Shown: positions 11,206 to 63,317 of the stretch, piece after piece
Layout: each line of letters starts with the position of its first letter
Position numbering within the stretch: position 1 is the stretch's first letter
Source: Nannocystis bainbridge
GTDB taxonomy: Bacteria > Myxococcota_A > Polyangia > Nannocystales > Nannocystaceae
Reading direction: 5' to 3'
Length of the DNA stretch: 64,000 bases
Assembly (NCBI RefSeq): GCF_028368995.1
Contig: NZ_JAQNDL010000001.1
Coordinates: 4,256,001-4,320,000 of the forward strand
The notes under the pieces: generated by a model
The model's database searches: none
What the model was told of the DNA's origin: nothing
The model's input: the letters and a program-made list of their open reading frames with translations, nothing else
Made by a program: the position numbers and the translations under genes

Positions 11206-13563
11206 CTAAAACGCTCCACGAAGGCCCAGGGAGGGTAAAATGTATCTTAGGCCACGCGAGCCGCACGTCGTGTTGCTGACGATCGAGCCTGCTCCCGACA
11301 TCGCTGCATCCGAATTTCCTTGGAGCACGCAAGCGATGACTTCGCTCGAATACGTGGAGTTGAGCACGTCTGCGACGAAGTGCAGGCTCCAAGAGCGGAA
11401 GCGCCAAGTTCGTTCGGCGCGCAGGTCGAGCTGGAAGTAAGCGGGCAAGCGACGGTTGTTACGGTTGTAGAGAAGTGCCTCAGAAGCGGTCTGATCGCCG
11501 ATTTGGACGGTGTACGGGCGACCTGAATGAAAGTGCAGGCGACCGCCGAAGCTCCAGCGATCGCTGATGCGATAGCCGAGCACGACGTTGACGATGTGAC
11601 GCTGATCCCAGCTCGAGGGGGCGCGGCCGCCGTACTCGTACTCGCGGGTCGAGCGCGACAGCGTGTACGCGGCCCACCCGTACGCACGCTGACCGGGCAG
11701 CAGGCGCGCCATCGTCTCGATGCCGTACGACCAACCTTTGGCCGAGATCACGACGTCGTCGATCTCCTGCAGCTTGCCCGACGACAGCGACGCGAGGTCG
11801 TAGTCCTGCAGATTCGAAAGGCGGCCGAGGTAGACGTCTTGGGTGATCGCCAGCTTGTTGCCGAGCACCAGCTCGTAGCCGGCGCTACCCTGAATGTTGC
11901 GCTGCAGGCCGCGCTCGAAGCCGAAGCTCTCGAGCCCCGGGACCGGCACGGGGAAGCTCGGCGGCTGGTGGTAGACGCCGATGTTCTGGCGCAGCGTCCA
12001 GCGCTCGCCGACCTTCTCGCGCACGAGGATCCGCGGGTCGATGCCGAACGCGTGGGTCAGCGTGCGCGCCTGCGGCAGCACCGGCGAGTGACCGACCTGG
12101 GTGTAGAGATCGCCGCGCACGCCGGGGCGGATGTCGAACCGACCCTTGCGCCACAGCAGCTCGGCGTAGAGGCCCGTGGCCGAGACCACGCGGTCGCTGA
12201 ACAGCTGCGTGAGGCTCTCGAGCTGCCAGCCCTCGCCCGCCGTGGCCCCCGTCGTGCCGCGGAAGATCTGGACCTCCTGATCGATGCCGACCCCGAGCTC
12301 CGCGTTGCCGCTCTCACCGACGGGCACGCGCACGTCGACGCGCGGCGCGATCAACCATTCGTTGCTGCGCGTGCGCGACACACCCGTGCGATCGAGGCCG
12401 AGGCCGAGGCTGTAGGTTGCGACGCCGCCGCGCGGCAGCTCGTGGCGGATCTTCTGCACCAGCCGGTAGAACTCGAAGCGCACGAACGGGGTCGGGTTCG
12501 ACTTCTCACCCAGCTCGTCGAAGCTGCCGAGGGCGAACGCGGTGTACGTGGCGCGCTTGCCGAGCGCGTGGTCGAAGCGGGCCTGGTAGTCCCAGAAGCG
12601 CAGCTTGAGGTTGGCCTGGACCAGCGTCAGCACGCCCGCGGTGTAGCTGTAGCGCCCCGCCAGCGTCAGCGAGCCGCGCGCCGGCCCGCGCCGACAGTCC
12701 TCGCGCTTGATCCGACCTGTCCTTTTAGACCTGGCCTTTTTTCGCTGTTCTGCGAGACATGACCGATCGTGCTTGTAGTTGAGCGGGATCTCGACGAGGC
12801 CGCCGGCGTCCGTGAGGCGGATGTCGAACTCCCCGTAGGCGCGGTCGCGGCGAGCGGCGCGCGTGCGGCCCTCGATGATGCCGCTGGCGTAGCGTCCGAG
12901 CCGCACCGGCGCGCCGCTGGCATAAAAGTCGACCTGGTCGATGAAGTACGGGTGGATGACGGACGGCCCGAGCGCGACGTGGAACAGGATCGGCACGCGC
13001 ACGCCGTCGAGGTAGTAACCGGTGTTGCCGGGCGCCGCGCCGCGGACCACCACGTACGGCAGGAAGCCGGCCAGCTGCGACACCCCGGGCAGGCTCCCGA
13101 CCACGCGGAACGGATCGCCGAAGGTCCCCGGCACTGCGCGGATCTCCTCGTCGCGCAGCGTCGTGCTCGACACCGCCACCTCGCGTTGCTGCCGGACCAC
13201 CGTGCGGTACGGGTTGCCGGCGACATCGGGCGCGAGGCGGTACTCGTAGACCAGGTCTTGCCGATCTTCGAGCTTGATACTCACGGACAGGTCCTGAAAG
13301 CCAGCCGCGCGGATGAGCAGCTTGTGCTCGCCGGGCGGCAGCCACAGCTCGAAGTGCCCGGTCTTGTCGGTCTCGGTCGAGTTGTCGTCGCCGAGCAGAC
13401 GCGCGCCTGCCACTGGATCGCGGCTGCCGTACGCCATCACCCGACCGCGCAGGCGCGCTCGCCCGAGCCGCGCGGGCGCGACGGTCGTGGCCTCGGCTGT
13501 CTCGTTCGACGCGCTCGCCGGCACCGACGCTGGCGCGAGCGCGAGGAGGAGAGCGAGCACCAC
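11206..13563 (-). CDS. TonB-dependent receptor with N-terminal carboxypeptidase-regulatory-like domain
   Basis: Signal peptide; plug motifs VPGTFGDPFRVVGSLPGV and VVRGAAPGNTGYYLDG; barrel end RLPAYFQLDLR...LPSLGLRGAF. Confidence 0.9.
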   Translation of the reverse strand: MVLALLLALAPASVPASASNETAEATTVAPARLGRARLRGRVMAYGSRDPVAGARLLGDDNSTETDKTGHFELWLPPGEHKLLIRAAGFQDLSVSIKLEDRQDLVYEYRLAPDVAGNPYRTVVRQQREVAVSSTTLRDEEIRAVPGTFGDPFRVVGSLPGVSQLAGFLPYVVVRGAAPGNTGYYLDGVRVPILFHVALGPSVIHPYFIDQVDFYASGAPVRLGRYASGIIEGRTRAARRDRAYGEFDIRLTDAGGLVEIPLNYKHDRSCLAEQRKKARSKRTGRIKREDCRRGPARGSLTLAGRYSYTAGVLTLVQANLKLRFWDYQARFDHALGKRATYTAFALGSFDELGEKSNPTPFVRFEFYRLVQKIRHELPRGGVATYSLGLGLDRTGVSRTRSNEWLIAPRVDVRVPVGESGNAELGVGIDQEVQIFRGTTGATAGEGWQLESLTQLFSDRVVSATGLYAELLWRKGRFDIRPGVRGDLYTQVGHSPVLPQARTLTHAFGIDPRILVREKVGERWTLRQNIGVYHQPPSFPVPVPGLESFGFERGLQRNIQGSAGYELVLGNKLAITQDVYLGRLSNLQDYDLASLSSGKLQEIDDVVISAKGWSYGIETMARLLPGQRAYGWAAYTLSRSTREYEYGGRAPSSWDQRHIVNVVLGYRISDRWSFGGRLHFHSGRPYTVQIGDQTASEALLYNRNNRRLPAYFQLDLRAERTWRFRSWSLHFVADVLNSTYSSEVIACVLQGNSDAAMSGAGSIVSNTTCGSRGLRYILPSLGLRGAF

Positions 13564-13632
13564 GCGCCCAGGATATCGGAGGTCCGTGGCGTCGAGGTCG
13601 CGAATGCGCGCGAGCTCGAAAGACCTCGATGC

Positions 13633-14175
13633 TCAGGCCCCGTCGCGGCGCATCGCGGCCCGGCGCGCGCCCGGCAGGCGAGCATCGTCGGCGCTCGAGG
13701 GACCGCGACGCGGCGTCGTCATCCGCTCCGTGGCCGGCTCGGCGGGCGGGGCCGCTGGCGACGGTCGCGGCAGTGATTTGCGCCGCTCGCCCGGCGGCTC
13801 GGCGGGCGGGGCGGTGCGCATCGCCGCGGGTGACGGTCGCGGCAGTGATTTGCGCCGCTCGCCCGACGGCTCGACGGGCGGGGCGGTGCGCATCGCCGCG
13901 TGTGACGGTCGCGGCAGTGATTTGCGCCGCTCGCCCGGCGGCTCCTTCGTGGTCGTCGCGCGCGTCGGCGCCTCGACGTACTCGCCGAAGATCCGCTGCT
14001 TCATGTCCTCGAGCATCGGCGAGATCCGCCCGCGCGTCCCGTCGAGCAGGTCCTTCGCTTGCGGCGTCTCACCGATCCGGTCGACGTGCTCCGACAGCGT
14101 GAACGCGCCGAGCTTGACCGTGCAGCTCGCCCACAGGACCGCCACCAGGAACACGAGGCTGAGCAGGGTGCGCAT
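13633..14175 (-). CDS. Small membrane-anchored protein with three 24-aa Pro/Arg repeats
   Basis: N-terminal TM helix; 72-bp repeats (CAGTGATTTG at 13771, 13843, 13915) encode PPGERRKSLPRPS-AAMRTAPP. Confidence 0.6.
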   Translation of the reverse strand: MRTLLSLVFLVAVLWASCTVKLGAFTLSEHVDRIGETPQAKDLLDGTRGRISPMLEDMKQRIFGEYVEAPTRATTTKEPPGERRKSLPRPSHAAMRTAPPVEPSGERRKSLPRPSPAAMRTAPPAEPPGERRKSLPRPSPAAPPAEPATERMTTPRRGPSSADDARLPGARRAAMRRDGA

Positions 14176-14283
14176 GAAGCCGGGCGCGCGAGCCTCCCGA
14201 GGCGCGCGCGCGCGATCTTCGAGCCCGCCGCGCGCCGAGGCAAATTTTTGACCGGCGGCGCCGCGCGCCCACCGGGCGCGCCG

Positions 14284-15117
14284 TCACTTCTCCGCGCTGC
14301 TGTCGCGTCCGAGCTCGGAGGCGACCTTGGCGGCCTCCTGGATCGTGCGGGCGAGGACGGAGCGGATCCTGCCGTCCTCCATGGTCAGGATGCCGGCGAT
14401 CGTGCAACCGGCCGGCGTGGTGACTTGATCCTTGAGGGCGGCCGGGTGGAAGCCGGTCGACAGCACCATGCGCGCCGCGCCCTGGAACACCTGTGCCGCC
14501 ATCTGCAGCGCCACCGGGCGCGGCAGGCCCATCATCACGCCGCCGTCGGCCATCGCCTCGATCATCACGTAGACGAACGCCGGGCCGCTGGCGCCGAGGC
14601 TCGTCACCGCGTCCATCAATTTGTCCTCGACCTCGAGGCACAGGCCCACGGTGTCGAACAGCTGTTTCGCCAGGCCGACCTCGGCGTCGCCCGCTCGCTG
14701 GCCGCGCGCCAGCACCGTCATGCCCTGTCCGATGAGACATGGCGTATTGGGCATGGCCCGAATGACAGGGCTCGCCGGCAACCATCCCTGCAGCTGGGCG
14801 AGCGTGACCCCGGCGGCGATGCTGATGACCGGCTTGTCGACCAGCGCCGCCTGCACCCCGTCCTCGTGCAGCACCTTGCTGACGCGCTGGGGCTTGACCG
14901 CGAGCAGCACCGCGTCGGCCTCGCGCATCGCCTGCAGGTTGTCGGCGGCGATGCGGACGCCATGACGCTGACGGACGGCCTCGGCGGCCTCGTGCCTGCG
15001 CGTGGTCGCCACGATCTGCGTCGGCGCGAGCAGCCCCGCGCGCAGCAGGCCGGCGGCGATCGCCTCGCCCATGGTCCCGCAGCCGATGATCGCCAGAGTC
15101 CGCCCTGCCAGCAGCAT
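14284..15117 (-). CDS. proC: Pyrroline-5-carboxylate reductase
   Basis: IIGCGTMG, LAVKPQ, ISIAAGV, RAMPNTP, SGPAFVY, LKDQVTTPAGCTIAG; the start is most likely ATG 15117. Confidence 0.96.
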   Translation of the reverse strand: MLLAGRTLAIIGCGTMGEAIAAGLLRAGLLAPTQIVATTRRHEAAEAVRQRHGVRIAADNLQAMREADAVLLAVKPQRVSKVLHEDGVQAALVDKPVISIAAGVTLAQLQGWLPASPVIRAMPNTPCLIGQGMTVLARGQRAGDAEVGLAKQLFDTVGLCLEVEDKLMDAVTSLGASGPAFVYVMIEAMADGGVMMGLPRPVALQMAAQVFQGAARMVLSTGFHPAALKDQVTTPAGCTIAGILTMEDGRIRSVLARTIQEAAKVASELGRDSSAEK

Positions 15118-15152
15118 GGGCCGGCGCTTACCACAGGCCGCGGGCTCGCGCC

Positions 15153-15854: not shown

Positions 15855-15923
15855 GGTCTACGAGGGTGCCACGGATCGCGGCGTGACCCAAAGTAGCGGG
15901 CCGTGTATGCTCCGCGCGCGCCC

Positions 15924-17608: not shown

Positions 17609-17680
17609 GCGCTGCTCGCCCGTCGCCCACCTGCGCTTCTCCCGTGCACGTCCCGCCGGGACGGGTTAAGGTTCCGGGGC

Positions 17681-18649: not shown

Positions 18650-18842
18650 CCGACCCGCGGCCGGCTCGCTACCTGATCACGCCCCGCAGTTCAGCCTCGA
18701 CGGCGCCGATCTGGCGCCGCGCGGCGAACTCTGCCGCTAGCCGACCCGGGACCGGCTCGCTGCCGATCGCGCCCCCGCAATTCACCCTCGACGGCGCCGG
18801 TCTGGCCCCGCGCGACGAAATCTGCCGCTAGCCGACCCGCGG
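18591..18842. repeat. Three 91-bp tandem copies of the lipoprotein gene 3' end
   Basis: Stops end at 18649, 18740, 18831; peptides PQFTLDGAGLAPRGELCR*, PQFSLDGADLAPRGELCR*, PQFTLDGAGLAPRDEICR*. Confidence 0.92.
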
Positions 18843-18924
18843 CCCGATCAAGGGGTAGCCCCGCGAGCTGTCTCTCGGCGCATGCTCCGAAGGGCATGTC
18901 CTTCGGAGCATGTCCCTTCGGCCA

Positions 18925-20115
<1,191 letters not shown>

Positions 20116-51032: not shown

Positions 51033-51116
51033 GGGCCCGATAGACATGTTTAAAGAATCATGTCTTTAAAGACATGTCTGATTCGACATGCCCTTCACAA
51101 CATGTCCCATAGACGT
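51033..51116. repeat. Array of six 14-bp dyad units in exact phase
   Basis: Units start at 51033, 51047, 51061 (TGTCTTTAAAGACA), 51075 (TGTCTGATTCGACA), 51089, 51103. Confidence 0.85.
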
Positions 51117-51443: not shown

Positions 51444-54400
51444 TCACACCGCCAGCACGACGTCGGCCGCGGGGAACAGCAGCACCGCCTCGACCTGCTT
51501 GCGCTCGAGGCCGGCCTGCTCGGCCGCGGCCGCGCGCCAGGCGGTCACCGCGTCGCGGTAGAGGCGGGCCCGCTCCTCGGCCTCGGACTGCTTCTCGATG
51601 TTGTCGAGGCAGAGGCCGTAGACGACGGCCTTTTGCACATGGCCCTCGAGACCTGTCGCATCGACCTCGTCGAGGCCGAGCTCGAGGTTGGGGTCGAGGT
51701 CGAGCACGAGCCGGGCGATCTCGCCGGTCTGGAGGGCGCCGCTGCCGTCGAGGCGGGCGAACGGGACCTGCCGCTCGACCCGCGTCGCGGACGGGTCGCG
51801 CGCGCCGCGACTCAGCGCGGCGCGCAGGTTGGGGCCCTCGAGCACGCGCAAGAACTCCTGCACCCGCGCCCGCACCCACGTCTCGTCGCGGCTCGGCGCG
51901 GCGGCCCGCACGATCGCCTCGAGGCTCGGGGTGCTCGGGTTGAACTCCTCGAACCAGGCGATCTCGGCGAACAGGGCCCGCATCGCCGCGCCCCAGTGCG
52001 ACAGCGGCGTGTCCGCCAGGTGCATGTGGTCGGCGACGGTGCGGCCCGGGTCCTGCGCGAGCACGGCGGCGCGCACCAGCGGGCCCTGCGAGGGCAAGAA
52101 GCTGAGGCTCGTCGGCTCGCTCACCGGCACCGCCGCCGGCCGCTCACCCGCTCCCGCCGGCGCCGACTCGAGGTGCGGCGCCGAGGGGTCGACGGGGCCG
52201 GGCTCGACGTAGGCGTGCGGCGCCAGCCAGCTGCGGTCGCCGTGCTCGAACAGCACGCTGTCGGGCTCGACCGGGCCCTCGTGCAGCGCGTGGATCACCA
52301 GCGCCGCGGCCTTGGCCGGCGCGCCGCGGCTGCCCTCGCTCGGCGGGTCGACGAGGATGAACAGGCCCTCGCGCGCGCGCGTGACGGCGACGTAGAGGAG
52401 GCACAGGCTCTCGTGCGCCAGCCGGTCGATGTGCTGCTCGAAGATCGGGCGCAGGTCGTCGAACTGCTGCCACATGTCCTTCGAGACATGGCGGGCGATC
52501 CGGATCACCGGGCCGGCGTCGCCGTCGCGCTCGTAGACGACCTTGAGCGTGCGCGTCGAGGCCAGCTCGGTCTCGAGCTCGGGCAGGATGACGATGTCGA
52601 ACTCGAGGCCCTTCGACTGGTGGACCGTCATCACCTGGACCGCGGAGGCGGCCGGGTCGGCGACGGGCCGCGTCTCGACCATGGCGACGAACTGGTCGCA
52701 GCGGAGGGTCCGCCGCTCGTCCCACACCTGCGCCAGCTGGATGAGCTGCATGCAGCGCCGGTACTGCCGCTCGTCGACCTGGCCGGCGATCGCCCGCACC
52801 CACTGCTGCAGGGTCGGCGCCAGGCCGTCGCTGGCGATCTGCCGCCGCACCCGCGCGGCGACGCGGCGCTGCAGGTTGCGGTCGTCCTTGTCGAAGCCGA
52901 CCACCTGTCCCAAAGGACTGGCGAACACGTTGAAGCCGGCGATCGAGTGATCGGGGTGGTCGGCGAGGCGCAGCAGGTCGAGGATCGCGTTGACCGCGGG
53001 GGCGTCGGTGAGCGGGCCGCCGCCGCGGCCGGTCGCGGGGATCTTGAGGCGGGTCGGGCCGAGCTCGTAGAGGACGCGGCCGACGGCGCCGTTGGTCCGC
53101 AGCAGCACGCCGATCGTCTTGCCGGGGTGGCGGTGGTACAGCTCGGCGACCAGCGCCGCGGCCTCCTGCAGGCGCAGCTGCTGCCGCTTGCCCTGGTCCT
53201 CGCAGCGGCCGACCGCGCGCACCTGCACGTAGCCGGGCAGCTTGCGGGTGGTGGTGTGCTGCTCGAACTCGGAGTCCCAGCGGCGCGCGGCGTACGGGTA
53301 GCGCAGCAGCGTCGGGTTGTCCTTGAGGTTGGTGAAGATCTTGTTGACGACCTCGATCACCGCCGGCGACGAGCGGTAGCTGGTGGCGAGGGTCTCCTTG
53401 TGCAGCACCTGACCACCTGGCCGATGGAGCAGGTCGTCGAGACGCGAGAGGATCTCGGGGCAGGCGTTGCGCCAGCCGTAGATCGACTGCTTGACGTCGC
53501 CGACGCAGAAGAAGCTGCGCTCGTCGGTCGAGTACGACACGGTCTCGTCGACGATCGGCCGCAGGGCGTTCCACTGCTGGATGCTGGTGTCCTGCATCTC
53601 GTCGAGCAGGACGTGGCGCAGGCGGGCGTCGATGCGGAAGCAGATCTCGTCGAGGTGGCCGGAGAGGTCGGCCTGCGCCAGCGCGACGGTGAGGTCGGCG
53701 AAGGTGATGACCTTGTGCTCGCGCTTGACCCGGCGATAACAGCTGTCGAACAGCTGCAGCAGGGTGCAGGTGGCCCGGGTCTGCTCGATGACGCGGCGGC
53801 GGAACACCCCGCGCGCGTGGCCGAGCAGGCGCCGGTAGGCGAACACGGTGCCCGGCGCGATCGGCTTGTTGTAGTAGACGAGCTCGTTCTCGGCGACCTT
53901 CTTGGCCAGACCGGTGGTGAAGAACTCCATCCAGTCGTCGGAGCTGCCGCCGCGGCACTGCTCGGCGCGCTGACAGTCCTTCTGGTGGGCCTCGATGCCG
54001 CGCTTGCCGAGGTCGGTCGGCACGGCGAAGCGCAGGGTCGCGATCGCGTCGTCGAGCTCCTGCTCGCCGAGCGTCGGCTCGGGCGCGATCGCCTCCCACG
54101 CGGAGGTGTCGTGGGCCTCGCGGTAGAGGTCGTAGAGCGAGCTGACGGTGTTGTCGATGGTGTCGGTGACGGCCCGCTCGGAGCTGCCCTCGGTCAGCGA
54201 CGCCAGCAGCTCGATGATCGCCTCGGTGTCGCCCTCCTCGAGCATGAGCCCGATCGCCTCGCGGCGCAGGCGGAAGGCCTCGTCCTCGTCGACGATCCGG
54301 GCGTCGGTCGGCAGCCCGAGCTCGAGCGAGAAGCAGCGCACGATCGTGCCGAAGAAGCTGTCGAGCGTGCGGATCTGCAGGCGGTGGAGGTTGTTGGCCA

Positions 54401-56174
54401 GGCTGGCCAGGAGGTCGAGCACGCGGGTGCGCGCGAGGTCGCGGTGGAGCCGGTGGCCGAGCTCCTCGCGCTTGGCGCCGTCGTCGGCGGCCTCGGCGAG
54501 GGTGCGCAAGATTCGGTCGCGGATCTCGCCGGCAGCGGCGCGGGTGAAGGTGCTGGCGAGGATCGAGTAGGGGAAGGCGCCCCGACTCAAGATCTGCAAG
54601 TAGCGGTTGGTGAGCTGGTAGGTCTTGCCCGAGCCGGCCGAGGCCAGGATCCGCATGTGCTCGAGCCGGTGCCCGCCGGTGAGCCGCGGGTCGGGCGGGA
54701 GGTCGAACGCGGCCTCGGCGACCCGCTCGGCCTCGGCGATCACGGCGAGGACGTCCTGCCGCGGGGCGGGCGGCATGTCCTCGGGGACATACGACCTGAC
54801 CTTGGCACCAGGTCGCTTGCGCGCGTGCGGCGGGTCGAGCACGACGGCCTCGGCGAGGGCGATCGCGTCGGCGAGGTTGTCGGCCGGGCCCGGGAGATCG
54901 GTGGCGTGCGCGAGGGCGTCGATCTCGTCCGGGACGAAGCGCCGGGTCCGTGGCGGCTCGACGGCGACCTGGCTCGCGTGCAGCTCGCCGTCCCCGGGCT
55001 CGAGCCACTCGGCGTCGGCGGGCGAGATGTCCTCTTGAACAGGCTCGGACGGGACTTGGTCGCGGCTGTCCTCGCGGACAGGTCGCTCGACGAGGGTCTC
55101 TGCGCGACGCGAGGGCTCGCCGGGGGCGTTGCGGCCCGTCGCGCCCGCGCGGTCGGCTCCTTCGCGGTCGTCCGGGCCACCGTCCGAAAGGACAGGCGAT
55201 TCGTCGCGCGCACGGTCGCTGACGGCGCGCGCGCGCCTGCTCGAAGCGACGGAGGCCTCGACTTCGGCGACGCGCGCTGGCGCTTCCCCGTCCAGGACAT
55301 GGAACGTCCTGTCCGAAGAGACATGTACCGAGCTCACGCTCTGTCTCTGCTCCTCGGCGGCGGCGTCGCTCTCGAGGACAGGCTCATCGGACAGGGCATC
55401 GTTCGCGTGGCGAGATGTCCTGACCGACGGGACAGGCGCGCCTGCCCGCGGCTCACTCGCGCCGCGCGCCATGTCCTTCGGGACAGGTCTTCCCGCCTGT
55501 GGCTCACTCGCACCGCGCGCCTCACCGCGCGCCTCACCGCTCGTCGGCGGCTCACTCGCGCTGCGAGGCTTCCTGTCCGCGAGGCCAGGTTCTCTCGTCG
55601 GCGGCTCGCTCACACCACGGGACCTCCTGTCCGTCGGGACAGGTCCGCTCGCCTGCGCCTCACTCGCGCCGCGAGGCTTCCTGTCCGCAGGGCCAGGTTC
55701 TCTCGTCGGCGGCTCGCTCGCGCTGCGAGGCTTCCTGTCCGTGGGGACAGGTCCGCCCGCCTGCGTCTCGCTCGCGCCGCCGGGCCTCCTGTTCGAAGGA
55801 GTAGAGGACGCCTCGCCCATCCGGTCGCCGGTGTCGCGGGCTCTCCTGTCCGTCGGGACAGGTCCGCCCGCTTCGGTCTCGCTCGCACCGCCGGCTTTCG
55901 AGATCGTCGGCGGCTCGCCGCGGTCGCCCTTGCGGCCGCGCCGGCGCGGCTCGGCGGCGGGCTCCGGTTGCGGGGCCGGGCGCGCGGCTGCTTCGGCGCT
56001 GCGGGCGAAGGCGCCGGCGACCGCGTTGAAAAGGTCGCGCGCGGGGCGGGCGACCTGACGCGGGGCGGTGCGGTTGCGCCTGGCCTTGCGGACAGGTGGT
56101 GGCGCCGCCGCGGCATCGGGCTCGCCGAACAGCCACAGCGACTCCGGGCGCGGCGGCTTCTCGGGGTCGCTCAC
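51444..56174 (-). CDS. addA: AddA/UvrD-type helicase subunit with long N-terminal extension and degenerate C-terminal nuclease
   Basis: ASAGSGKT, TFTRAAAGE, LDEMQDT, VGDVKQSIYGWR, SYRSS, MTVHQSKGLEF, LLYVAVTRA; GTGA overlap with the upstream stop. Confidence 0.88.
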   Translation of the reverse strand: MSDPEKPPRPESLWLFGEPDAAAAPPPVRKARRNRTAPRQVARPARDLFNAVAGAFARSAEAAARPAPQPEPAAEPRRRGRKGDRGEPPTISKAGGASETEAGGPVPTDRRARDTGDRMGEASSTPSNRRPGGASETQAGGPVPTDRKPRSASEPPTREPGPADRKPRGASEAQASGPVPTDRRSRGVSEPPTREPGLADRKPRSASEPPTSGEARGEARGASEPQAGRPVPKDMARGASEPRAGAPVPSVRTSRHANDALSDEPVLESDAAAEEQRQSVSSVHVSSDRTFHVLDGEAPARVAEVEASVASSRRARAVSDRARDESPVLSDGGPDDREGADRAGATGRNAPGEPSRRAETLVERPVREDSRDQVPSEPVQEDISPADAEWLEPGDGELHASQVAVEPPRTRRFVPDEIDALAHATDLPGPADNLADAIALAEAVVLDPPHARKRPGAKVRSYVPEDMPPAPRQDVLAVIAEAERVAEAAFDLPPDPRLTGGHRLEHMRILASAGSGKTYQLTNRYLQILSRGAFPYSILASTFTRAAAGEIRDRILRTLAEAADDGAKREELGHRLHRDLARTRVLDLLASLANNLHRLQIRTLDSFFGTIVRCFSLELGLPTDARIVDEDEAFRLRREAIGLMLEEGDTEAIIELLASLTEGSSERAVTDTIDNTVSSLYDLYREAHDTSAWEAIAPEPTLGEQELDDAIATLRFAVPTDLGKRGIEAHQKDCQRAEQCRGGSSDDWMEFFTTGLAKKVAENELVYYNKPIAPGTVFAYRRLLGHARGVFRRRVIEQTRATCTLLQLFDSCYRRVKREHKVITFADLTVALAQADLSGHLDEICFRIDARLRHVLLDEMQDTSIQQWNALRPIVDETVSYSTDERSFFCVGDVKQSIYGWRNACPEILSRLDDLLHRPGGQVLHKETLATSYRSSPAVIEVVNKIFTNLKDNPTLLRYPYAARRWDSEFEQHTTTRKLPGYVQVRAVGRCEDQGKRQQLRLQEAAALVAELYHRHPGKTIGVLLRTNGAVGRVLYELGPTRLKIPATGRGGGPLTDAPAVNAILDLLRLADHPDHSIAGFNVFASPLGQVVGFDKDDRNLQRRVAARVRRQIASDGLAPTLQQWVRAIAGQVDERQYRRCMQLIQLAQVWDERRTLRCDQFVAMVETRPVADPAASAVQVMTVHQSKGLEFDIVILPELETELASTRTLKVVYERDGDAGPVIRIARHVSKDMWQQFDDLRPIFEQHIDRLAHESLCLLYVAVTRAREGLFILVDPPSEGSRGAPAKAAALVIHALHEGPVEPDSVLFEHGDRSWLAPHAYVEPGPVDPSAPHLESAPAGAGERPAAVPVSEPTSLSFLPSQGPLVRAAVLAQDPGRTVADHMHLADTPLSHWGAAMRALFAEIAWFEEFNPSTPSLEAIVRAAAPSRDETWVRARVQEFLRVLEGPNLRAALSRGARDPSATRVERQVPFARLDGSGALQTGEIARLVLDLDPNLELGLDEVDATGLEGHVQKAVVYGLCLDNIEKQSEAEERARLYRDAVTAWRAAAAEQAGLERKQVEAVLLFPAADVVLAV
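55500..55890. repeat. 54-bp (18-aa) tandem repeats inside the AddA N-terminal extension
   Basis: Dyad-type units at 55574, 55628, 55682, 55736 (54-bp period) and 55847; peptides such as GPVPTDRKPRSASEPPTRE. Confidence 0.8.
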
Positions 56175-59122
56175 GCCTCGGCCTCCAGGTCGTCGGCGCC
56201 GCCGAACACGCGGGTCTGGCAGATGTTGGCGAAGTCGTCCTGGTAGCGGGCGGCGAAGTCGCCCATGATGTCGAAGCGGCCGGCGCGGATGCTGCGGACG
56301 ATGTCCCGCGCGGTGCCGACGGCGTCATCGAGGTCGGCCGGGGTCCAGCGGGCGATGTGCAGCGCCTCCTGCTCCGGCTTCTTCGGCAAGTTCATGTAAG
56401 CCAGCTGGACCGGCCCGGAGTAGCCGTGCTGGGCCGCGAGGTGGTGGTAGAGCGGCAGCTGCAGGTCGCTCCACTGGCTCGCCGAACCCCGGGCCGCCCG
56501 GTGCGTCTTGTCGGGGCTGTGGCCCGACTCGCTGGTCTTGTAGTCGATGATCATCCACGAGCCGTCGCGGACGTTTTGATCGATGCGATCGATCTTCCCC
56601 TTGATCCGCATCTTCGGCTGATCGGGAATTTGCAGGTAGGTCTCCTCGGGCAGCTCGAACTCGCAGCGGCGGATCTTCCAGCCGTCGGCGCGGCGGCGGG
56701 CCTGGTGCGGCGCGAACGAGGCGAGGCGCTGGCGGAGGCGCGAGATCTGGATCCGGATCGCCGGCAGCGGGCGGGCGCCGAAGGTCTCGCGCGCGCGGTC
56801 GTCGAGCACGCCGTCGAGGTACTTGGCGATCGCCTCGGGGTCGACGCTGTCGGCGATCGCCGGGTCCTCGCCGAAGCGCTGCAGGACGTCGTGGGTCAGG
56901 TTGCCGAACTGCAGCGCGTCGAGCTCGACGGCGCTGTCGTCGATCAGGCGCAGGCGGCGGACGTACTTGAGGTAGTAGCGGAACGGGCAGCGCAGGTAGA
57001 GGCCGAACTCGGTGACCGTCATGGCCGGCGGCTCGATCGGCGGGCCGGGTTCGGGGATCCGGAAGCCGGAGGTCGCGCTAGAGGGCGGGGCGCCGTACGG
57101 CAGGGCCCAGCGGCGGGCATGGTTCGGATCGCAGAGCCGGAGGATCCGCGCCGGCAGCAGCTCGAGGTCGCCGGCGAGCAGCAAGCGCGAAGGCGTGAGC
57201 GGCTCGCCGTCGGCGGCCTGGCGCCCGGCGATGAAGGTGCACTTGACGCGGCTGCGGCGGATCGCCTCGATGAGGTAGGCGTCGCGGGCGTAGCGGCGGC
57301 CGTTGCTGAGCACGCCGAGGTGCTCACGCAGGCCGTCGGGCAGGAACGCGTCGGCGGTGACGGCCTGCGGCACGGCGCCGTCGTTGCAACCGGCGAGCAC
57401 CAGCACCGGCGCCGGATCGTGGTGCAGCTCGAGCCAGCCGAGCATCTCGATCTGGCCCGAGCGCGGGTCCTCGGGCACGCGCAGGCCGGCAAGCTGCGCG
57501 AGCACGAGGCGCAGCGCGGTCGGGCCGTCGACGTCGGGCTGGAGCCCGGGCGCGGCGCCGGTCAGGTTGCCGAGGTTCTTGGCGATCTCGATGCAGGTGT
57601 TGGCGACCCGCTGGTCGCTGATCGCCCGCGCGTGGACGTCGAGGTGGCCGTAGGCGTTGCGCAGGACCTCGAGGATCGGCTCGAACCACTGCGTCAGCGG
57701 CCGGCGGTCGCCCACCAGCGGCGAGTACAGCTTGGCGACGATGTCGTGGAGGATCTGCATCCGCCGCGCGACCTTCTCGTCGCCGAGCCACGCGCTACCG
57801 AGGTTGTCCTGCAGGTGCTCGGTGTGATAGCGGTCGAGCACCGTCAACCACTCGACGATCGTGTGGTCGTCGGCGGCGACGTCGTCCTTGCTGTCCTTTG
57901 GGACCTGTCCTTCGAGACCTGCGCTGAAGGGCACGTCCTCGGGGACCTGTTCGGCGGGCTTGGCCTCGGCCCACTCGGGCGCGGGGCCGGCCGGCGGCTT
58001 GGCCTTGCCGAGCAGGCGGCGGACGAAGCCCTCGACGTCGGGGTGGCGGATCAGCGCGGCGAACGGGAAGAACCGCGAGTCGCGGACCCACTCGAGCCCG
58101 GCCTGCAGCAGGCGGAACGGGCGGCCGTGGAGGGCCAGGAGGCCGCGCGGGTCGTGCACGCCGATGTCGGCCCACTGCCCGGCCTGGGTCATGGTCGGCG
58201 CGAGCTTCTCGTCGCCGAGGCCGATCGTGACCTCTTCGGGGCGGTAGGCGCCGCCGAGGTCGGCGAGGCAGCGGATGACGGCCTGGGCCTGGTCGGCGGG
58301 GCGGTCGGCGATGATGAGCTGGTCGTCGGGGATCTCGATCGGGCGACCGGACCAGAAGTTGCGCTCGACGCAGCCGTCGGCGTCGAAGCCGGAATAGAGC
58401 TGCTCGGGGGCGTGGATCAGGGCGGTGGCGCGGTCGCCGTAGGCGCGGACGATGGCGCGGTGGACCCGGGCGAGGTCGACGACGCCGACGAGCACGAGCT
58501 GGTGGTCCGGGTCGACCGGGGTGGCGCCGTCGACGAGGGCGGCGATGACCTCGCGCCGGCGCTCGTGCGGGCAGACGCGGTCCTCGCGGCCGAGGCGCTC
58601 GCGGTAGCGGCCCTCGAGGCGCTCGAGCACGGCCCAGCGCTCGGCCTCGCGGTCCATGCTCATGCGGGCGGCGACGCGGGCGACGTCGCGGAGCGCCAGC
58701 AGCTCGGCCGACAGCTCGTCGACGACGCCGGCGACGGTGCCCGCGAGCTCGTGCCAGGCCGGCCAGTCGTAGAAGTCGGGGCGGGTCGGCAGCAGCGGCG
58801 AGATGTGCTCGGGGCGGGCCTCCCGCAGCACGTGCATCCACGCGAGGGTGCACTCCAGGGGCGAAGCGGTGCGGGCGTCGCCGGGGACCAGCAGCTCGGC
58901 GAGGGCCCCAGGGGTCAGGACCTGCGGCGGGACCAGGCGGAGGCCGCGCTCGGCGCACTGGCGGAGCAGCAGGTGCAGCAGGACCCGGCCGGCGCGGGCG
59001 CCAGGCAGCACGCAGCGGACCGCCCGCAGGTCGCAGCGACGACCTTCGGCGTGGCGCTCGATGAGCCAGGCGGCGGCCGCGGGGAGCAGCGGCCCTTGCC
59101 AGTCCAACCATTGACGCTGCAT
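56171..59122 (-). CDS. addB: AddB-like subunit with C-terminal PD-(D/E)xK nuclease
   Basis: VLPGARAGRVL, YLRCPFRYYL, FGNLTHDVL, GKIDRID, IIDYKT, QLPLY. Confidence 0.85.
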   Translation of the reverse strand: MQRQWLDWQGPLLPAAAAWLIERHAEGRRCDLRAVRCVLPGARAGRVLLHLLLRQCAERGLRLVPPQVLTPGALAELLVPGDARTASPLECTLAWMHVLREARPEHISPLLPTRPDFYDWPAWHELAGTVAGVVDELSAELLALRDVARVAARMSMDREAERWAVLERLEGRYRERLGREDRVCPHERRREVIAALVDGATPVDPDHQLVLVGVVDLARVHRAIVRAYGDRATALIHAPEQLYSGFDADGCVERNFWSGRPIEIPDDQLIIADRPADQAQAVIRCLADLGGAYRPEEVTIGLGDEKLAPTMTQAGQWADIGVHDPRGLLALHGRPFRLLQAGLEWVRDSRFFPFAALIRHPDVEGFVRRLLGKAKPPAGPAPEWAEAKPAEQVPEDVPFSAGLEGQVPKDSKDDVAADDHTIVEWLTVLDRYHTEHLQDNLGSAWLGDEKVARRMQILHDIVAKLYSPLVGDRRPLTQWFEPILEVLRNAYGHLDVHARAISDQRVANTCIEIAKNLGNLTGAAPGLQPDVDGPTALRLVLAQLAGLRVPEDPRSGQIEMLGWLELHHDPAPVLVLAGCNDGAVPQAVTADAFLPDGLREHLGVLSNGRRYARDAYLIEAIRRSRVKCTFIAGRQAADGEPLTPSRLLLAGDLELLPARILRLCDPNHARRWALPYGAPPSSATSGFRIPEPGPPIEPPAMTVTEFGLYLRCPFRYYLKYVRRLRLIDDSAVELDALQFGNLTHDVLQRFGEDPAIADSVDPEAIAKYLDGVLDDRARETFGARPLPAIRIQISRLRQRLASFAPHQARRRADGWKIRRCEFELPEETYLQIPDQPKMRIKGKIDRIDQNVRDGSWMIIDYKTSESGHSPDKTHRAARGSASQWSDLQLPLYHHLAAQHGYSGPVQLAYMNLPKKPEQEALHIARWTPADLDDAVGTARDIVRSIRAGRFDIMGDFAARYQDDFANICQTRVFGGADDLEAEA

Positions 59123-59409
59123 GGGCCGCTCGCGGAGACAGGCAACCTACGAAACGAAAAGGGGCCATGCAAGGCCCGCGGCGCGCCGGAGATCGCTCGA
59201 GCGGGCCGTGGGGATTGCTAGATCCACCACGTGCCCCGGGAGGGGCAGAGCGGGCGGGTACTGCGGCCGATCGCCGGAAATTCGCGGCGCTGCGTGGCCC
59301 CGGCGAAAATCGCCGAAAATTTGACAGGCCCGTCCGCGGCCTCGTGACGGCCCCTCACGCCTGTCGGGGTCGGTGTCCGGCGGGGTCGGCGTGGTAGCGT
59401 GAGGACCGG

Positions 59410-61394: not shown

Positions 61395-62077
61395 TGGCGG
61401 CGCGCTTCTTCAAGGGGCTGCTGACGCGGATCGGCGCGCGCCTGTCCTCGCGGACAGTTCACAAATTCAACGCGGCGCTCAACTACGTCGAGGTCGGGCG
61501 GTGGATGGCGGCCCGCGGGTTCGACACGTCGCGCCGCGCGGCCCACCGCTTCGAGATCTACGAGCAGATCGCGCGCGAGCTCGGCGAGGCGCGGGTGCTC
61601 TACCTCGAGTTCGGCGTGCACCGCGGCGAGTCGATCGCGCGCTGGTCCGAGCTGCTCCAGGGTCCAGGTTGCCGGCTGGTCGGCTTCGACAGCTTCGAGG
61701 GCCTGCCCGAGGACTGGACCGCGATCGACCGCAAGGGCACGTTCTCGACCGGGGGCGCGGCGCCGGCGTTGAGCGACCCGCGGGTGTCGTTCGTCAAGGG
61801 CTGGTTCGACGCGACGCTGCCGGCCTTCGAAGTGCCGCCGCACGAGCGGCTGGTGCTGCACTTCGACGCCGACCTCTACAGCTCGACGCGCACGGCCCTG
61901 CAGGCGTTCGAGCCGCACATGTCCGTCGGGACATATTTGATCTTCGACGAGTTCGCCGACCGCAACCACGAGCTGCGCGCGTTCGAGGAGTTCTGGGCGA
62001 CGCACCCGGAGTGGGGCTTCCGCCTGGTCGGCTGCGACTCGATCCTCGCGCGCGTGGCCTTCGAGAGGGTGCGGTAG
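61394..62077 (+). CDS. TylF/MycF-type O-methyltransferase
   Basis: YLEFGVHRG, GFDSFEGLPEDW, VKGWFDATL, HFDADLYSST, IFDE. Confidence 0.88.
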   Translation: MAARFFKGLLTRIGARLSSRTVHKFNAALNYVEVGRWMAARGFDTSRRAAHRFEIYEQIARELGEARVLYLEFGVHRGESIARWSELLQGPGCRLVGFDSFEGLPEDWTAIDRKGTFSTGGAAPALSDPRVSFVKGWFDATLPAFEVPPHERLVLHFDADLYSSTRTALQAFEPHMSVGTYLIFDEFADRNHELRAFEEFWATHPEWGFRLVGCDSILARVAFERVR

Positions 62078-62102
62078 TGGGCGAGCGAGCGAGCGGCGCG
62101 CG

Positions 62103-63317
62103 GTGAGCGAGCGGCGACAGCCGGCTCCGCGCGGGCACAGGTCGGCGTTCGCGTGGATGGCCGGGCTGTCGGTCGTGACGCTGCTGCTCGGGGCCACGCG
62201 CGAGTTCCTGATCGCCCGCGAGCTGCGGGCCAGCGGCGCGGCCGACCTGTTCTTCCGCGGCCTGGTCGCGATCTCGGCGGCCCGCATGGTCGGCCTGTCG
62301 CTGTATCGGTCGCGGTGGTTCCCCGCGCCGCGCGAGCTGCTCGGGACCGCGCTCCTGCGACAGGAGCGATGGGTCAGCCTGGCGATGGCCGCGGCCGGCG
62401 TGGCCGCGCTGCTGGCGATCGTCGGGCCGCACGCGTGGGCCGACCCCACCGTGTGGGTGTTCGCGGTCGGCGTGGGCCTCGCGGTCCACGGCTCGGCGCT
62501 GCGCGCCCTGGCCGAGCGGGCCGGACGGGAGCGCCGCGGGTTCGCGCTCGAGTGGGGCATCCCGCTCGGGACCATCGCCGGGGCGACGCTGCTGCCGGGC
62601 GGGGCGCTGGGACCTTCGCTCGGGCTGGTCGCGGGGCTGGCGGTCGGCGTCGCGGGGGTGTGGCCTGCTGCGCGCTGTCCCGGAGGACATGACACAAAGG
62701 ACATGCCCCATGAGACACCCGGGCGGACGCGGGCGCTGCTGATCGACGCCCTGGTGTACGCCAACCTCGGGCTGCTCGACGCGGCGCTGTCGCACCTGTT
62801 CGTGGTCGGCGGGTTCGCGCGGCTGAACTACGCCTACCTGTTCGTCAACGCCGCGATCATGGTGCCGTCGGCCGCGGCGACGGTGGTGGCGTTGCGGGCC
62901 TCGGCCGGCGACCCGGCACGCGCCCACGCGGCGCTGCGGCGCTGGGCGGTGCTCGGCGGGTTCACCGGCGCAGGGGCGGTCGCGGCGGTGGGGCTGCTGT
63001 TCACGTGGCAGCCGGCGGCGACGGTGGTCGATCGGGCGATCGGCTGGGACGTGGCGGCACAGACGGGCTTGCTGATCCTGTGGAGCGCGCCGTTCGCCGG
63101 GCTGCGCCTCGCCAACACGATCGGCAGGCAGTCACAGGTCGCCGCCGACCCGCGCGGGCTGCTGGCGTGGGACCTCGGCGGGATCGCCGGTCGCGCGCTC
63201 ATCCTCGGGTTCGGCGCGAGCCTCGTGGGGCTGGTCGCGTCGCCGATCGGGCTGGCCTTCGCCGAAGCGGTGCAGCTCGGCGCGTGGTGGCACGGGCCGC
63301 GACGCAAGGGCGAGTGA
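62103..63317 (+). CDS. MurJ/Wzx-like flippase (divergent)
   Basis: LLGATREFLIA...AADLFF (MurJ-type start), ARLNYA; multiple TM helices. Confidence 0.65.
   Translation: MSERRQPAPRGHRSAFAWMAGLSVVTLLLGATREFLIARELRASGAADLFFRGLVAISAARMVGLSLYRSRWFPAPRELLGTALLRQERWVSLAMAAAGVAALLAIVGPHAWADPTVWVFAVGVGLAVHGSALRALAERAGRERRGFALEWGIPLGTIAGATLLPGGALGPSLGLVAGLAVGVAGVWPAARCPGGHDTKDMPHETPGRTRALLIDALVYANLGLLDAALSHLFVVGGFARLNYAYLFVNAAIMVPSAAATVVALRASAGDPARAHAALRRWAVLGGFTGAGAVAAVGLLFTWQPAATVVDRAIGWDVAAQTGLLILWSAPFAGLRLANTIGRQSQVAADPRGLLAWDLGGIAGRALILGFGASLVGLVASPIGLAFAEAVQLGAWWHGPRRKGE

Follow-up and report, generated by a model that had tools for sequence, protein, structure and literature searches.

Palindromic units phased at 14 bp form a Nannocystis-specific array family that extends into protein-coding genes

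Six patches of coding sequence in the window (the 64,000-nucleotide stretch of Nannocystis bainbridge DNA analysed here) are intragenic members of a Nannocystis-specific, genome-wide set of phased sites which has been laid over coding sequence and is, on balance, probably bound by a protein. The repeating unit consists of the palindrome GGACATGTCC plus four variable bases, and its period is exactly 14 bp genome-wide. Arrays were called by a position-weight chain scan at a fixed period, with other periods serving as controls, and the 11-Mb genome yielded 3,852 arrays at period 14 compared to 131 to 302 at periods 11 to 13, 15 to 18, and 21. Pairs of the hexamer GACATG number 808 at a distance of 14 bp, 2 at 13 bp, and 8 at 15 bp, while GGACATGTCC itself occurs 956 times (approximately 9.5 expected), with 85% of occurrences located in arrays. 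Array size ranges from two to more than eight units, two-unit arrays being the commonest class both in genes and between genes, and the distribution of arrays over the chromosome is clustered (CV 1.44), whereas a structural scaffold might be evenly spaced.

The host is a soil myxobacterium of the genus Nannocystis. Comparisons were made with a close relative, G005 (91% nucleotide identity to the genome under study, G000), the distant Nannocystis genomes G009 and G002, the sister-genus genomes G011 and G013, and G014, which lacks motif pairs. GACATG-N8-GACATG is present 808 and 819 times on the two strands of G000, 429 to 595 times per strand in five close relatives, 9 to 78 times per strand in five distant congeners, and 5 to 16 times per strand in two sister genera; the remaining 18 genomes searched harbor 0 to 2 occurrences. 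Two of the comparison genomes were sampled over only approximately 0.8 Mb each. A stricter array pattern with 223 occurrences in G000 had no match in a sample of 300 further genomes from the phylum. The array family is specific to Nannocystis.

Table 1. Arrays of the 14-bp unit in the window
Feature	Position	Gene and strand	Remarks
TonB-dependent receptor array	12713..12764	11206-13440, minus	Encodes DRSCLAEQRKKARSKRTGR
ProC array, three units	14721..14758	14284-15117, minus	Over conserved peptide RAMPNTPCLIGQGM
Two-unit intragenic array	34222..34245	32517-34304, minus	15.7 bits
"HTTM fusion" array, two strong units	36200..36223	35357-37921, minus, 854 aa	Peptide RPLRHVFKGMSGVP
FGE-sulfatase-domain protein array, three units	39913..39950	38683-40263, plus	Peptide KHGLQDMPPETWLK
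Two-unit intragenic array	42408..42431	42013-44046, minus	Threshold scan
Two-unit intragenic array	43163..43186	42013-44046, minus	14.3 bits, marginal
Five-unit intergenic array, the strongest in the window	51042..51107	Between convergent genes	75 bits
AddA-like helicase-nuclease, C-terminal two-unit array	51635..51658	51444-55337, minus	Peptide TGLEGHV
AddA-like gene, two-unit array	52470..52493	Minus	Peptide HVSKDM
AddA-like N-terminal extension, two-unit array	54771..54794	Minus	Threshold scan
AddA-like N-terminal extension, two-unit array	55023..55046	Minus	Threshold scan
AddA-like gene, two units near called start (start codon uncertain)	55305..55328	Minus	Threshold scan
AddB-like nuclease array, four threshold units (five counted by eye)	57887..57952	56171-59107, minus	Peptide KPAEQVPEDVPFSAGLEGQVPKDS
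Two-unit intragenic array	61915..61938	61394-62077, plus	Threshold scan
"Flippase" array, two strong units	62685..62708	Membrane-protein gene 62157-63317, plus, 386 aa	Peptide CPGGHDTKDMPHET

The first-pass annotation had described phased arrays in six genes, often as 42-bp blocks of three units, an observation which is partly confirmed: units are present at all six sites, each within a called gene (Table 1), but the sites contain 2, 2, 3, 2, 4, and 2 units at threshold, and weak flanking units, as judged by eye, lift some of them to four or five. Nor does coding sequence favor multiples of three units, as had been suggested, these representing 392 of 1,210 arrays in genes (32.4%) and 659 of 2,145 between genes (30.7%). 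A small 42-bp signal is nonetheless apparent, with 73 in-gene exact-hexamer pairs at a distance of 42 bp and 58 at 28 bp, and with a 42-bp self-identity of 0.71 to 1.00 in six intragenic arrays of at least five units.

Pfam domains were assigned to four of the six products (TonB-receptor Plug, FGE-sulfatase, UvrD-helicase in the AddA-like protein, and PD-(D/E)XK nuclease in the AddB-like protein), while the "HTTM fusion" and "flippase" returned no Pfam match. None of the six arrays is missing from four close relatives wherever the region is alignable. In the TonB-dependent receptor, the units at 12713 and 12727 exceed the threshold, that at 12741 is weak, and that at 12755 is good; this array is conserved in the four close relatives and is located in a Cys-Cys loop that differs in length from genus to genus. 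At the HTTM-like site, the G000 clade carries 15 additional amino acids relative to G009 and G002 and 10 relative to G013 and G011, and the FGE site carries 10 to 11 additional residues. The FGE array lies in the interval separating the two blocks that align with PDB 2q17, and residues 411 to 428 have a pLDDT below 50 in a model whose mean pLDDT is only 67. The segment between anchor residues 399 and 430 comprises 12, 21 to 22, 26 to 30, or 32 residues across 52 homologues, and the loop grew in steps of 12, 21, 27, and 32 residues. The AddA C-terminal array is also present in G009 and G002 (TGPEGQV), and approximately 21 residues are absent from this position in G011 and G013; the AddB array occupies a hypervariable, unalignable linker. 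The claim that the encoded peptides are loop insertions is borne out to the extent that each of the six patches falls in a variable loop or linker and three represent net insertions; the flippase loop, however, is 5 to 9 residues shorter than its counterparts in G009 and G011, and in G009 a different array, 15 bp longer, occupies the same place.

Among the other arrays in the window, that of ProC is ambiguous, as G014 possesses the same CCA TGT CTC codons. The array beginning at 34222 belongs to a low-score class in which control periods yield approximately 10% as many arrays, and that at 42408 drops out in G005, where a point change without an indel takes it below threshold. The AddA peptide HVSKDM is common to G009 and gap-free; the array at 54771 has no aligned sequence in G009 and is not an array in G005.

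Gene calls were obtained with a homemade codon-usage caller, without annotation, which defined 7,834 genes covering 82% of the genome. Wholly within these genes lie 1,210 arrays, 431 of which have at least three units, compared to 28, 36, 33, and 50 arrays (0 to 2 with at least three units) at control periods 11, 17, 20, and 23, which share with 14 the same residue modulo 3; even in the lowest score bin, period 14 yields 214 intragenic arrays and the control periods 13 to 28. The density is approximately 134 arrays/Mb in genes and 1,080/Mb between genes, i.e., about 8-fold higher in the latter. The use of A/T-ending codons unlike those of the flanks, which the first-pass annotation had pointed out, is evident from a GC3 of 0.660 in intragenic arrays (12,815 third positions) versus 0.932 in flanks (42,566 third positions). 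Unrelated proteins harbor identical phase-exact 14-bp units, the codon phase deciding whether a GHV-, DMS-, or TGP-type peptide is encoded, and the tripeptide DMS occurs 412 times versus 151 expected (2.7-fold), with 219 of the 412 located within arrays. Protein-level counter-selection is visible in a Cys-avoiding core variant which dominates one codon phase, the CAGG center (Thr-Gly) accounting for 43% of units in the Thr-Cys codon phase versus 6% between genes. Orthologue identity is 0.41 over array spans and 0.53 in controls. The sequence of the core shows that none of its six reading frames contains a stop codon, and it can thus always be read through. The proposal that protein sequence is shaped by a signal at the DNA level holds, given the same units in unrelated proteins, the drop in GC3, the DMS excess, and the avoidance of Cys.

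Alignment to orthologues, which had been suggested as a check for insertions, revealed residue gains at some arrays and an unchanged length at about half. Over the array span with a margin of 6 residues on either side, the length difference is zero for 37 of 75 arrays relative to G009 and for 37 of 74 relative to G011, a neutrality which alone does not separate a gain in Nannocystis from a loss in the outgroup; among the arrays of at least three units listed for the G011 comparison, 12 of 29 are length-neutral by our own tally. Gains of at least 3 residues are associated with 24% (G009) and 22% (G011) of arrays and with 6% of controls, and 15 further arrays fall at alignment breaks in the G011 comparison. 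Net gains are scattered over 3 to 31 residues, and of those of at least 5 residues, only 2 of 14 and 2 of 13 measure 13 to 15. Relative to G005, 37 of 39 intragenic arrays are free of indels, gains and losses being clustered point changes. Residues 230 to 242 of PheT are encoded in a gap-free codon alignment of seven genomes from four genera, in which only the G000 clade has the array. Residues 239 to 256 of a ferredoxin-reductase-type protein are similarly free of gaps over seven genomes in four genera; here, G009 already possesses one unit (GAC ATG TCC) and the sister genera none, and the segment measures 34 residues in 59 of 76 homologues, the query included. Predicted structures had also been proposed as a check, and the reductase array encodes a helix (235 to 245) and a strand (248 to 254) in a model of mean pLDDT 93. 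These alignments show that in PheT and the reductase the motif overwrote existing codons, those of the reductase helix and strand included.

The motif, its phase and abundance, its restriction to one lineage, the length-neutral origin, the unshared spacers, and the footprint in the proteome are established by these data; the cause of the arrays is inferred, the likeliest being that they represent cooperative protein-binding sites. Each palindrome would bind a dimer of a sequence-specific DNA-binding protein, and the cooperative assembly of such dimers along the array would be the pressure which keeps the pattern; each 14-bp step would rotate the dimer by approximately 120 degrees, so that three units would span four helical turns. 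About half of the intragenic arrays were written into existing codons by base substitution, leaving protein length unchanged and reaching essential and well-folded domains too, while about a quarter coincide with in-frame residue gains in tolerant loops, a number of which arose by duplication of 42 bp (three units). Protein-level selection then trims the arrays, with Cys avoided and poorly conserved positions occupied. As in operator and iteron arrays, palindromic sites recur at a fixed center-to-center spacing with free spacers, and positions vary independently (mutual information within and between units is below 0.06, adjacent spacer bases excepted), as would be expected of direct read-out by a protein. 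The spacers' lack of strand bias and the unremarkable RNA folding of intragenic arrays likewise suit a symmetric signal that acts as DNA. Operators and iterons are few per replicon and located in control regions; the Nannocystis sites, in contrast, number thousands and are situated mostly after genes and also within them.

An uptake-sequence-like molecular drive, whereby biased uptake and recombination or repair would convert near-matches without benefit to the cell, is an unlikely alternative. Known uptake sequences are single asymmetric words rather than palindromes at an exact 14-bp phase, and phase would not result from a drive on isolated words. The Nannocystis unit, unlike USS (Pasteurellaceae) and DUS (Neisseria), is a perfect palindrome at such a phase, and its far greater density between genes likewise argues against drive. 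A short word repeated hundreds-fold across one lineage, in genes and between them, is nevertheless common to these systems, and uptake sequences are often arranged as inverted pairs downstream of genes. The parts of PMC2817400 that bear on the matter describe uptake sequences which accumulate in place in coding regions, raise the encoded tripeptides about twofold, and occur in genes and at positions of poor conservation; the DMS excess, the less conserved array spans, and the gap-free overwriting of codons match this behavior, and the differences from G005 take the form of clusters of several changed bases that either approach or depart from the motif.

The main home of the array family is just downstream of genes: intergenic density is 2.38/kb in convergent, 1.0/kb in tandem, and 0.47/kb in divergent gaps (5-fold higher in convergent than in divergent gaps), arrays in tandem gaps lie at a median of 70 nt past the upstream stop codon, and 367 arrays straddle 3' gene ends versus 167 at 5' ends. 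Such placement would suit a function as terminator or RNA end no less than protein binding. It is, however, distinctly improbable that the arrays are RNA-level elements, i.e., hairpin runs (TGTCC-N4-GGACA) which end or protect mRNAs, with intragenic copies as spill-over. In favor of this, the strong intergenic array at 51042 folds with z values of -5.0 on one strand and -5.5 on the other, and sense-strand mismatches are slightly more often G-U than A-C (844 versus 699). Putative stem pairs nevertheless lack covariation, many combinations being non-pairing, the spacers show no strand bias relative to transcription, loops have no orientation bias (TTCG 79, CGAA 67), and the folding of intragenic arrays does not surpass that of shuffled sequence (z of -0.84 for AddB and +1.24), while a search of Rfam returned no family match and the model leaves unexplained the more than 1,000 arrays that lie in genes with exact phase. 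REP units measure 20 to 40 bp and carry a GTAG or CGTC head. The arrays resemble REP/BIME as short, high-copy, mostly extragenic palindromes at gene 3' ends, and differ from them in their 10-bp headless unit, strict 14-bp phase, and more than 1,000 intragenic copies. Roles described for REP/BIME in parts of PMC3733652 include supercoiling, termination, and mRNA stability.

A mobile palindromic element inserting in frame into loops, as the first-pass annotation proposed on the precedent of Rickettsia, is very improbable for the family as a whole. In the sections of PMC10969869 concerned with them, Rickettsia palindromic elements are discrete, approximately 150 bp in length, divided into ten families each with a conserved peptide, and inserted and read in frame in unrelated proteins compatibly with folding. 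Reading in frame in unrelated proteins, which intragenic MITEs share, applies here also, and the residue gains, the net insertions at three of the six sites, the stop-free core, and the few arrays that grew by 42-bp duplication are in keeping with insertion. Nevertheless, half of the arrays are length-neutral, net gains have no fixed size, FGE loop lengths are stepped, and the six arrays are never absent from the alignable regions of the four close relatives. Comparison of array spacers identified no family of full-length copies, and no Y1 (RAYT) transposase was found in the genome, which is 90% complete. Runs of three consecutive spacers are common to 46 array pairs (13.4 in shuffles) and runs of four to 15 pairs (0.1 in shuffles); among the matches listed, the runs of three are mostly from duplicated or tandemly repeated regions. 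The arrays have in common only the 10-bp core and the phase, not the spacers, and are thus formed locally; they are not copies of one element. Mobile insertion as a general rule is largely refuted by the length-neutral arrays and the absence of shared full-length copies, and the Rickettsia-type reading is only partly right. Chance or a codon-usage artefact, which may explain some low-scoring two-unit calls in conserved peptides, such as that of ProC or those of the lowest score bin, has next to no credibility for the family, being refuted by the control periods of the same residue modulo 3.

The persistence of the arrays favors the protein-binding reading, although less so under a fairer control. 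All four close relatives have the identical base at 24 of 38 third-position A/T sites in arrays versus 279 of 841 in the background (p = 3e-4), and the persistence of such bases relative to G005 is 0.83 in arrays (n = 94) and 0.42 in the background (n = 3,653). When restricted to positions that are also A/T in another relative, as an ancestral proxy, persistence is 0.80 to 0.97 in arrays and 0.80 to 0.91 in the background, the arrays being higher in 11 of 12 ordered pairs, none significantly (n of about 30). As this difference is not significant, the arrays may have formed in a burst before these species split and decayed neutrally thereafter. Because arrays in genes often overwrite codons rather than insert, the DNA-level pattern leaves a recurring peptide signature across the proteins of Nannocystis.

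Phased units were present at all six of the places highlighted by the first-pass annotation (in the genes for a TonB receptor and for HTTM-like, FGE, AddA-like, AddB-like and flippase-like proteins), in the form GGACATGTCC or near variants such as GACCTGTCC and AGACATGGCT, and with a spacing of exactly 14 bp. Across G000, the 11.05-Mb genome (71.5% GC) which holds the window, pairs of the hexamer GACATG occur 808 times at a distance of 14, compared to twice at 13 and eight times at 15, with harmonics at 28, 42, 56, 70, and 84. When aligned, the cores form GGACATGTCC, a perfect palindrome of 10 bp, with the four bases after it being variable and richer in A/T, and the core decamer was counted 956 times where ~9.5 occurrences are expected from base composition. 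Scanning for chains with a position-weight model (two or more units, each of 2 bits or more, summing to 14 bits or more) recovered 3,852 arrays at period 14, compared to 131 to 302 at periods 11 to 13, 15 to 18, and 21, the largest arrays reaching 21 units. The spacers of adjacent units are unlike in 96% of pairs, identical neighbors making up 4.0% of intergenic pairs (1.3% by chance) and 1.6% of intragenic pairs. The array family is defined solely by its palindromic core and phase. Along the chromosome, the arrays are clustered (CV 1.44), no regular spacing being seen, and eight array-free stretches of 35 to 76 kb each were observed despite a mean spacing of 2.9 kb.

Relative to gene calls made with a purpose-built codon-usage caller rather than a standard annotation (7,834 genes, representing 82% of the genome), 2,145 arrays are intergenic, 497 lie across a gene end, and 1,210 (31%) are located wholly inside one open called gene and are hence read through. 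The core GGACATGTCC, as read from its sequence, contains no stop codon in any of the six frames. At control periods of 11, 17, 20, and 23, which were chosen to have the same residue modulo 3 as period 14, the corresponding number of intragenic arrays was 28 to 50, while intragenic arrays of at least three units numbered 431 at period 14 versus 0 to 2 at the control periods. Genes are a disfavored location, since array density is ~8-fold greater between them, although very many arrays are still intragenic. All six cited sites fall within called genes, four of which are backed by Pfam, and all six arrays are located in segments that are poorly conserved and vary in length; for these sites, the impression of loops conveyed by the first-pass annotation was thus a fair one. 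In the case of FGE, the loop has a pLDDT of <50 in a weak structure model (mean pLDDT of 67), because of which its reading as a disordered loop is soft. The accompanying observation of A/T-ending codons was borne out, GC3 being 0.66 within arrays versus 0.93 in their flanks.

Features of the window, and sites of the motif in a sister genus
Feature	Position	Strand	Description
Array in TonB receptor			Located in a Cys-Cys loop of variable length
Array in HTTM-like protein			Protein 10-15 residues longer than in four relatives
Array in FGE protein			Loop lengths step through 12, 21-22, 26-30, and 32 residues; falls between blocks aligned to the solved FGE structure
Array in AddA			Array common across the genus; ~21 residues absent in two sister genera
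Array in AddB			Located in an unalignable linker
Array in flippase-like protein			Loop shorter than in outgroups; different array at that spot in G009 (distant Nannocystis)
Tandem repeat at a gene end	440-757		62-63 bp, about 4-5 copies, beginning shortly ahead of the stop codon of a gene (end at 454) and continuing past it; copies each hold two or three motif units (CCTGCCCTTCGGGGCATGTCCCTTCGG...), arrays being nested in the larger repeat
tRNA gene	1034-1107	minus	Rfam, 73 bits
Intergenic tandem repeats	5029-5281, 13751-13944, 18590-18844		Periods of 68, 72, and 91 bp; 2.7-3.7 copies, 89-95% matches; 5029-5281 holds GACCTGTCC...GGACAGC dyads
Tandem repeats, AddB-like/AddA-like gap	55537-55894		54/108 bp, each with a CCTGTCC-N4/5-GGACAGG dyad, a 'CCTG/CAGG' variant of the unit pair
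Sites in G011 (sister genus, 61% GC)	C24 (L153-L192), e.g., 34494, 228962, 550436, 773396		Period 14

The description of the arrays as often being in-frame blocks of 3 x 14 = 42 bp proved to be wrong. At threshold, the six sites contain 2, 2, 3, 2, 4, and 2 units, none of them representing a clean 42-bp insertion, and multiples of three units account for 32.4% of intragenic and 30.7% of intergenic arrays when these are extended through weak units (29.9% and 29.7%, respectively, at a stricter cut). As these shares are nearly equal within and between genes, there is no frame selection for three-unit blocks. A codon-phase echo is apparent among exact hexamer pairs in genes, of which 73 occur at distance 42 versus 58 at distance 28. 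Real 42-bp tandem duplications are few, being represented by six intragenic arrays (of at least five units) with a self-identity of 0.71 to 1.00 at a shift of 42. The 11-unit intragenic array G000:C3:1347899, in which a three-unit (42-bp, 14-residue) block is present three times in tandem, is the clearest example of in-frame array growth.

The six cited arrays are kept in all four close relatives (~91% nucleotide identity) wherever these can be aligned. In a comparison with one such relative, G005, 247 kb was aligned (52% of the 480 kb tried, with 33 intragenic and 58 intergenic arrays falling outside the scoring); of the 40 intragenic arrays that could be scored, 31 are common to both genomes, 37 of the 39 that are comparable in length show zero length difference, and the differences between intragenic arrays are clustered point changes. 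Intergenic arrays are far more fluid in the same comparison, with 58 of 84 being unalignable and only 9 of 21 comparable arrays being of equal length. Relative to the distant Nannocystis genome G009 (an 831-kb contig with 448 reciprocal-best pairs at a median identity of 67%), zero length difference was found for 37 of 75 intragenic arrays, assessed across the array span +/- 6 residues, while at least three extra residues were present in 24% of arrays versus 6% of 1,325 control spans and at least three fewer in 7% versus 4%. An array is carried at the same place in G009 for 12 of the 75. Relative to G011, a member of a sister genus (800 kb, reciprocal-best tblastn, with 74 of 89 arrays covered by alignments and the other 15 outside them), 37 of 74 arrays show zero length difference, compared to 72% of 1,320 controls, and gains of at least three residues occur in 22% of arrays versus 6% of controls; among arrays of at least three units, according to our own tally of the listed rows, 12 of 29 are length neutral and 7 of 29 gain at least three residues. 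The net gains are spread over 3 to 31 residues, small clusters being visible near 7 and 14. Presence of an array corresponds to an insertion relative to array-less orthologues at only ~22 to 24% of arrays, and the proposal that the arrays are insertions is thus sustained for this minority but not for the half that is length neutral.

Two genes exemplify the length-neutral class. The array of PheT is located in the B3_4 domain, where 13 codons are gap-free over seven genomes from four genera; the codons GGA TAT GTC CTC GAG GAC ATG TCC are confined to the G000 clade, and the site is occupied by unrelated G/C-ending codons in G009 and three other genera. In a reductase with Fer2, FAD-binding, and NAD-binding domains, four units extend over a gap-free stretch, which contains one unit in G009 and none in the outgroups. 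Of 76 aligned sequences, 59, the query among them, have 34 residues in this segment, and in the predicted model the segment forms a helix (235-245) and a strand (248-254), with a mean pLDDT of 93. These gap-free cases, coupled with the length-neutral counts, argue that many intragenic arrays overwrote existing codons, and, on the basis of the predicted structure, intragenic arrays reach beyond loops. ProC, considered as a showcase of synonymous "writing," was dropped, as a motif-less outgroup possesses identical codons.

Units occupy the three codon phases 1,203, 1,020, and 868 times, with encoded peptides of the GHV, DMS, and TGP/TCP type. The DMS tripeptide was observed 412 times versus 151 expected (2.7-fold), 219 of the 412 being located within arrays. 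In the Thr-Cys phase, the center CATG is replaced by CAGG in 43% of cases, compared to 6% between genes, which indicates that cysteine is avoided. Conservation is lower in array spans than in control spans, with identities of 0.41 versus 0.53 to G011 and 0.52 versus 0.62 to G009. The suggestion that a signal at the DNA level shapes protein sequence was right, and its reach is greater than had been proposed, taking in folded regions of essential proteins.

Third-position A/T bases are identical in G005 at a frequency of 0.83 within arrays versus 0.42 in the background and are identical in all four relatives in 24 of 38 versus 279 of 841 cases. When the comparison is restricted to bases that another relative also carries, the values are 0.80 to 0.97 for arrays and 0.80 to 0.91 for the background, arrays being higher in 11 of 12 comparisons, none of them significant. 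As this control indicates that the unconditioned gap is owed mostly to the young age of A/T third positions in the background, the gap was withdrawn as proof of purifying selection and is taken to denote persistence only. Ongoing purifying selection on the arrays is suggested, and a burst of arrays before the species split, followed by neutral decay, is still a viable alternative. In G000 (C1 3.85-4.33 Mb and the window), A/T third positions in general are conserved at 0.42 to 0.47 at 91% identity and G/C third positions at 0.88; since more than half of the A/T third positions are unshared, synonymous A/T turnover appears to be very fast, under strong GC pressure.

The motif family is restricted to one genus. 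Motif-pair counts per strand are 429 to 595 in five large close relatives, 9 to 78 in five smaller distant congeners, 5 to 16 in two sister genera, and 0 to 2 in the remaining 18 genomes searched, while a stricter motif pair, present 223 times in G000, was found in none of a phylum-wide sample of 300 further genomes from 208 other genera. Within the 800 kb of G011, 95 sites were detected at period 14 versus 30 to 39 at control periods, most of them consisting of two units with A/T-rich spacers. These may represent an ancestral, operator-like state of the motif which predates its expansion in Nannocystis.

As the cause of the phased arrays, we favor putative cooperative protein binding. Definition by a palindromic core and phase alone is expected from independent half-site read-out by a cooperatively binding dimeric protein, and known arrays of cooperative protein-binding sites share with those of Nannocystis their dyad-symmetric sites, fixed spacing, and free spacers. 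A putative dimeric DNA-binding protein would bind the arrays cooperatively, with its half-sites read independently, and 3 x 14 bp would, by standard helix geometry, equal four turns of B-DNA. Independently of the arrays, a figure legend in one report (10.1101/2023.02.26.530074) lists homologues of bacterial histones for Nannocystis exedens, Plesiocystis, and Enhygromyxa, so that unusual chromatin proteins are present in the Nannocystis family.

A rival to protein binding is a sequence-directed drive. Among known systems, DNA uptake sequences within coding regions behave most similarly; as described in PMC2817400, they accumulate in place at poorly conserved positions and are associated with enrichment of the encoded tripeptides. 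The Nannocystis motif matches these traits and is likewise a lineage-specific word that is hugely overrepresented within and between genes; however, an uptake sequence is a single asymmetric word, whereas the Nannocystis core is a perfect palindrome in exactly phased 14-bp arrays. An RNA role is a further rival; no Rfam family matches the arrays, a tRNA being the only Rfam match of the window, and, relative to shuffles, a strong intergenic array folds better while intragenic arrays fold no better.

Mobile insertion is the rival for which the first-pass annotation had offered Rickettsia palindromic elements as a precedent. These are described (PMC10969869) as discrete insertions of ~150 bp, each with a conserved encoded peptide. 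The analogy stands in that the arrays, as in Rickettsia palindromic elements or an intragenic MITE, are read through in frame without a stop and a minority are insertions, but it fails for a discrete copied element, copies of which are alike along their whole length, and for insertion as the general origin. Runs of three spacers are common to 46 array pairs (13.4 in shuffles) and runs of four to 15 (0.1 in shuffles), the listed three-spacer examples being mostly in duplicated or tandemly repeated regions. With regard to the terminal inverted repeats and target-site duplications of such elements, arrays built from 14-bp units have no definable ends. REP/BIME elements resemble the arrays in being mostly extragenic and at 3' gene ends, although nearly a third of the arrays are intragenic, and differ in being imperfect 20- to 40-bp hairpins maintained as structures, whereas the Nannocystis unit consists of 10 bp plus 4, without stem covariation. 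A Y1 (IS200/IS605-type) transposase (PF01797) was absent from G000 (completeness of 90.5%) in a search that was positive in 6 of 14 control genomes, and a REP/RAYT identity fails on this absence and on the structure.

An RNA hairpin, a minor rival favored by the 3'-end placement of arrays (intergenic densities per kb of 2.38 in convergent, 1.0 in tandem, and 0.47 in divergent regions, a median of 70 nt separating arrays from the preceding stop codon, and 367 straddling arrays on 3' versus 167 on 5' gene ends), was rejected as the main explanation by the folding tests and by covariation and loop-orientation tests, which revealed neither covariation within or between units, stem positions included, nor a spacer orientation bias relative to transcription.

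No description of this repeat was found in the literature searched, the coverage of which lay outside subscription journals. We know of no described repeat class which combines exact phasing, a palindromic core, a local length-neutral origin, and large-scale intragenic spread. It is tentatively proposed, as a possibility about which we are more doubtful than confident, that a lineage-specific, sequence-directed process keeps writing phased 14-bp palindromes in Nannocystis, even in folded domains encoded by essential genes, of which the PheT gene is an example, and that DNA grammar, not protein function, dictates the 14-residue pattern GHV..DMS..TGP in ~940 proteins. The writing process could be a putative cooperative DNA-binding or chromatin protein with selected sites or a drive through biased repair or recombination. 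The motif would then be the second genome-wide DNA word, after uptake sequences, which measurably rewrites a proteome and would be mechanistically distinct from them. Its presence in the PheT B3_4 domain as well as in the reductase helix and strand provides a tractable test of the DNA-level pressure that folded proteins tolerate. Because the low-GC3 patches resemble "foreign" inserts or insertions in loops, annotation, scans for horizontal transfer, and inference from alignments could be led astray in Nannocystis, which is mined for natural products. With regard to putative cooperative binding, the exact 14-bp phase represents a spatial grammar pointing to cooperative recognition, and identification of the array reader could reveal a new chromosome-organizing or termination system in Myxococcota.
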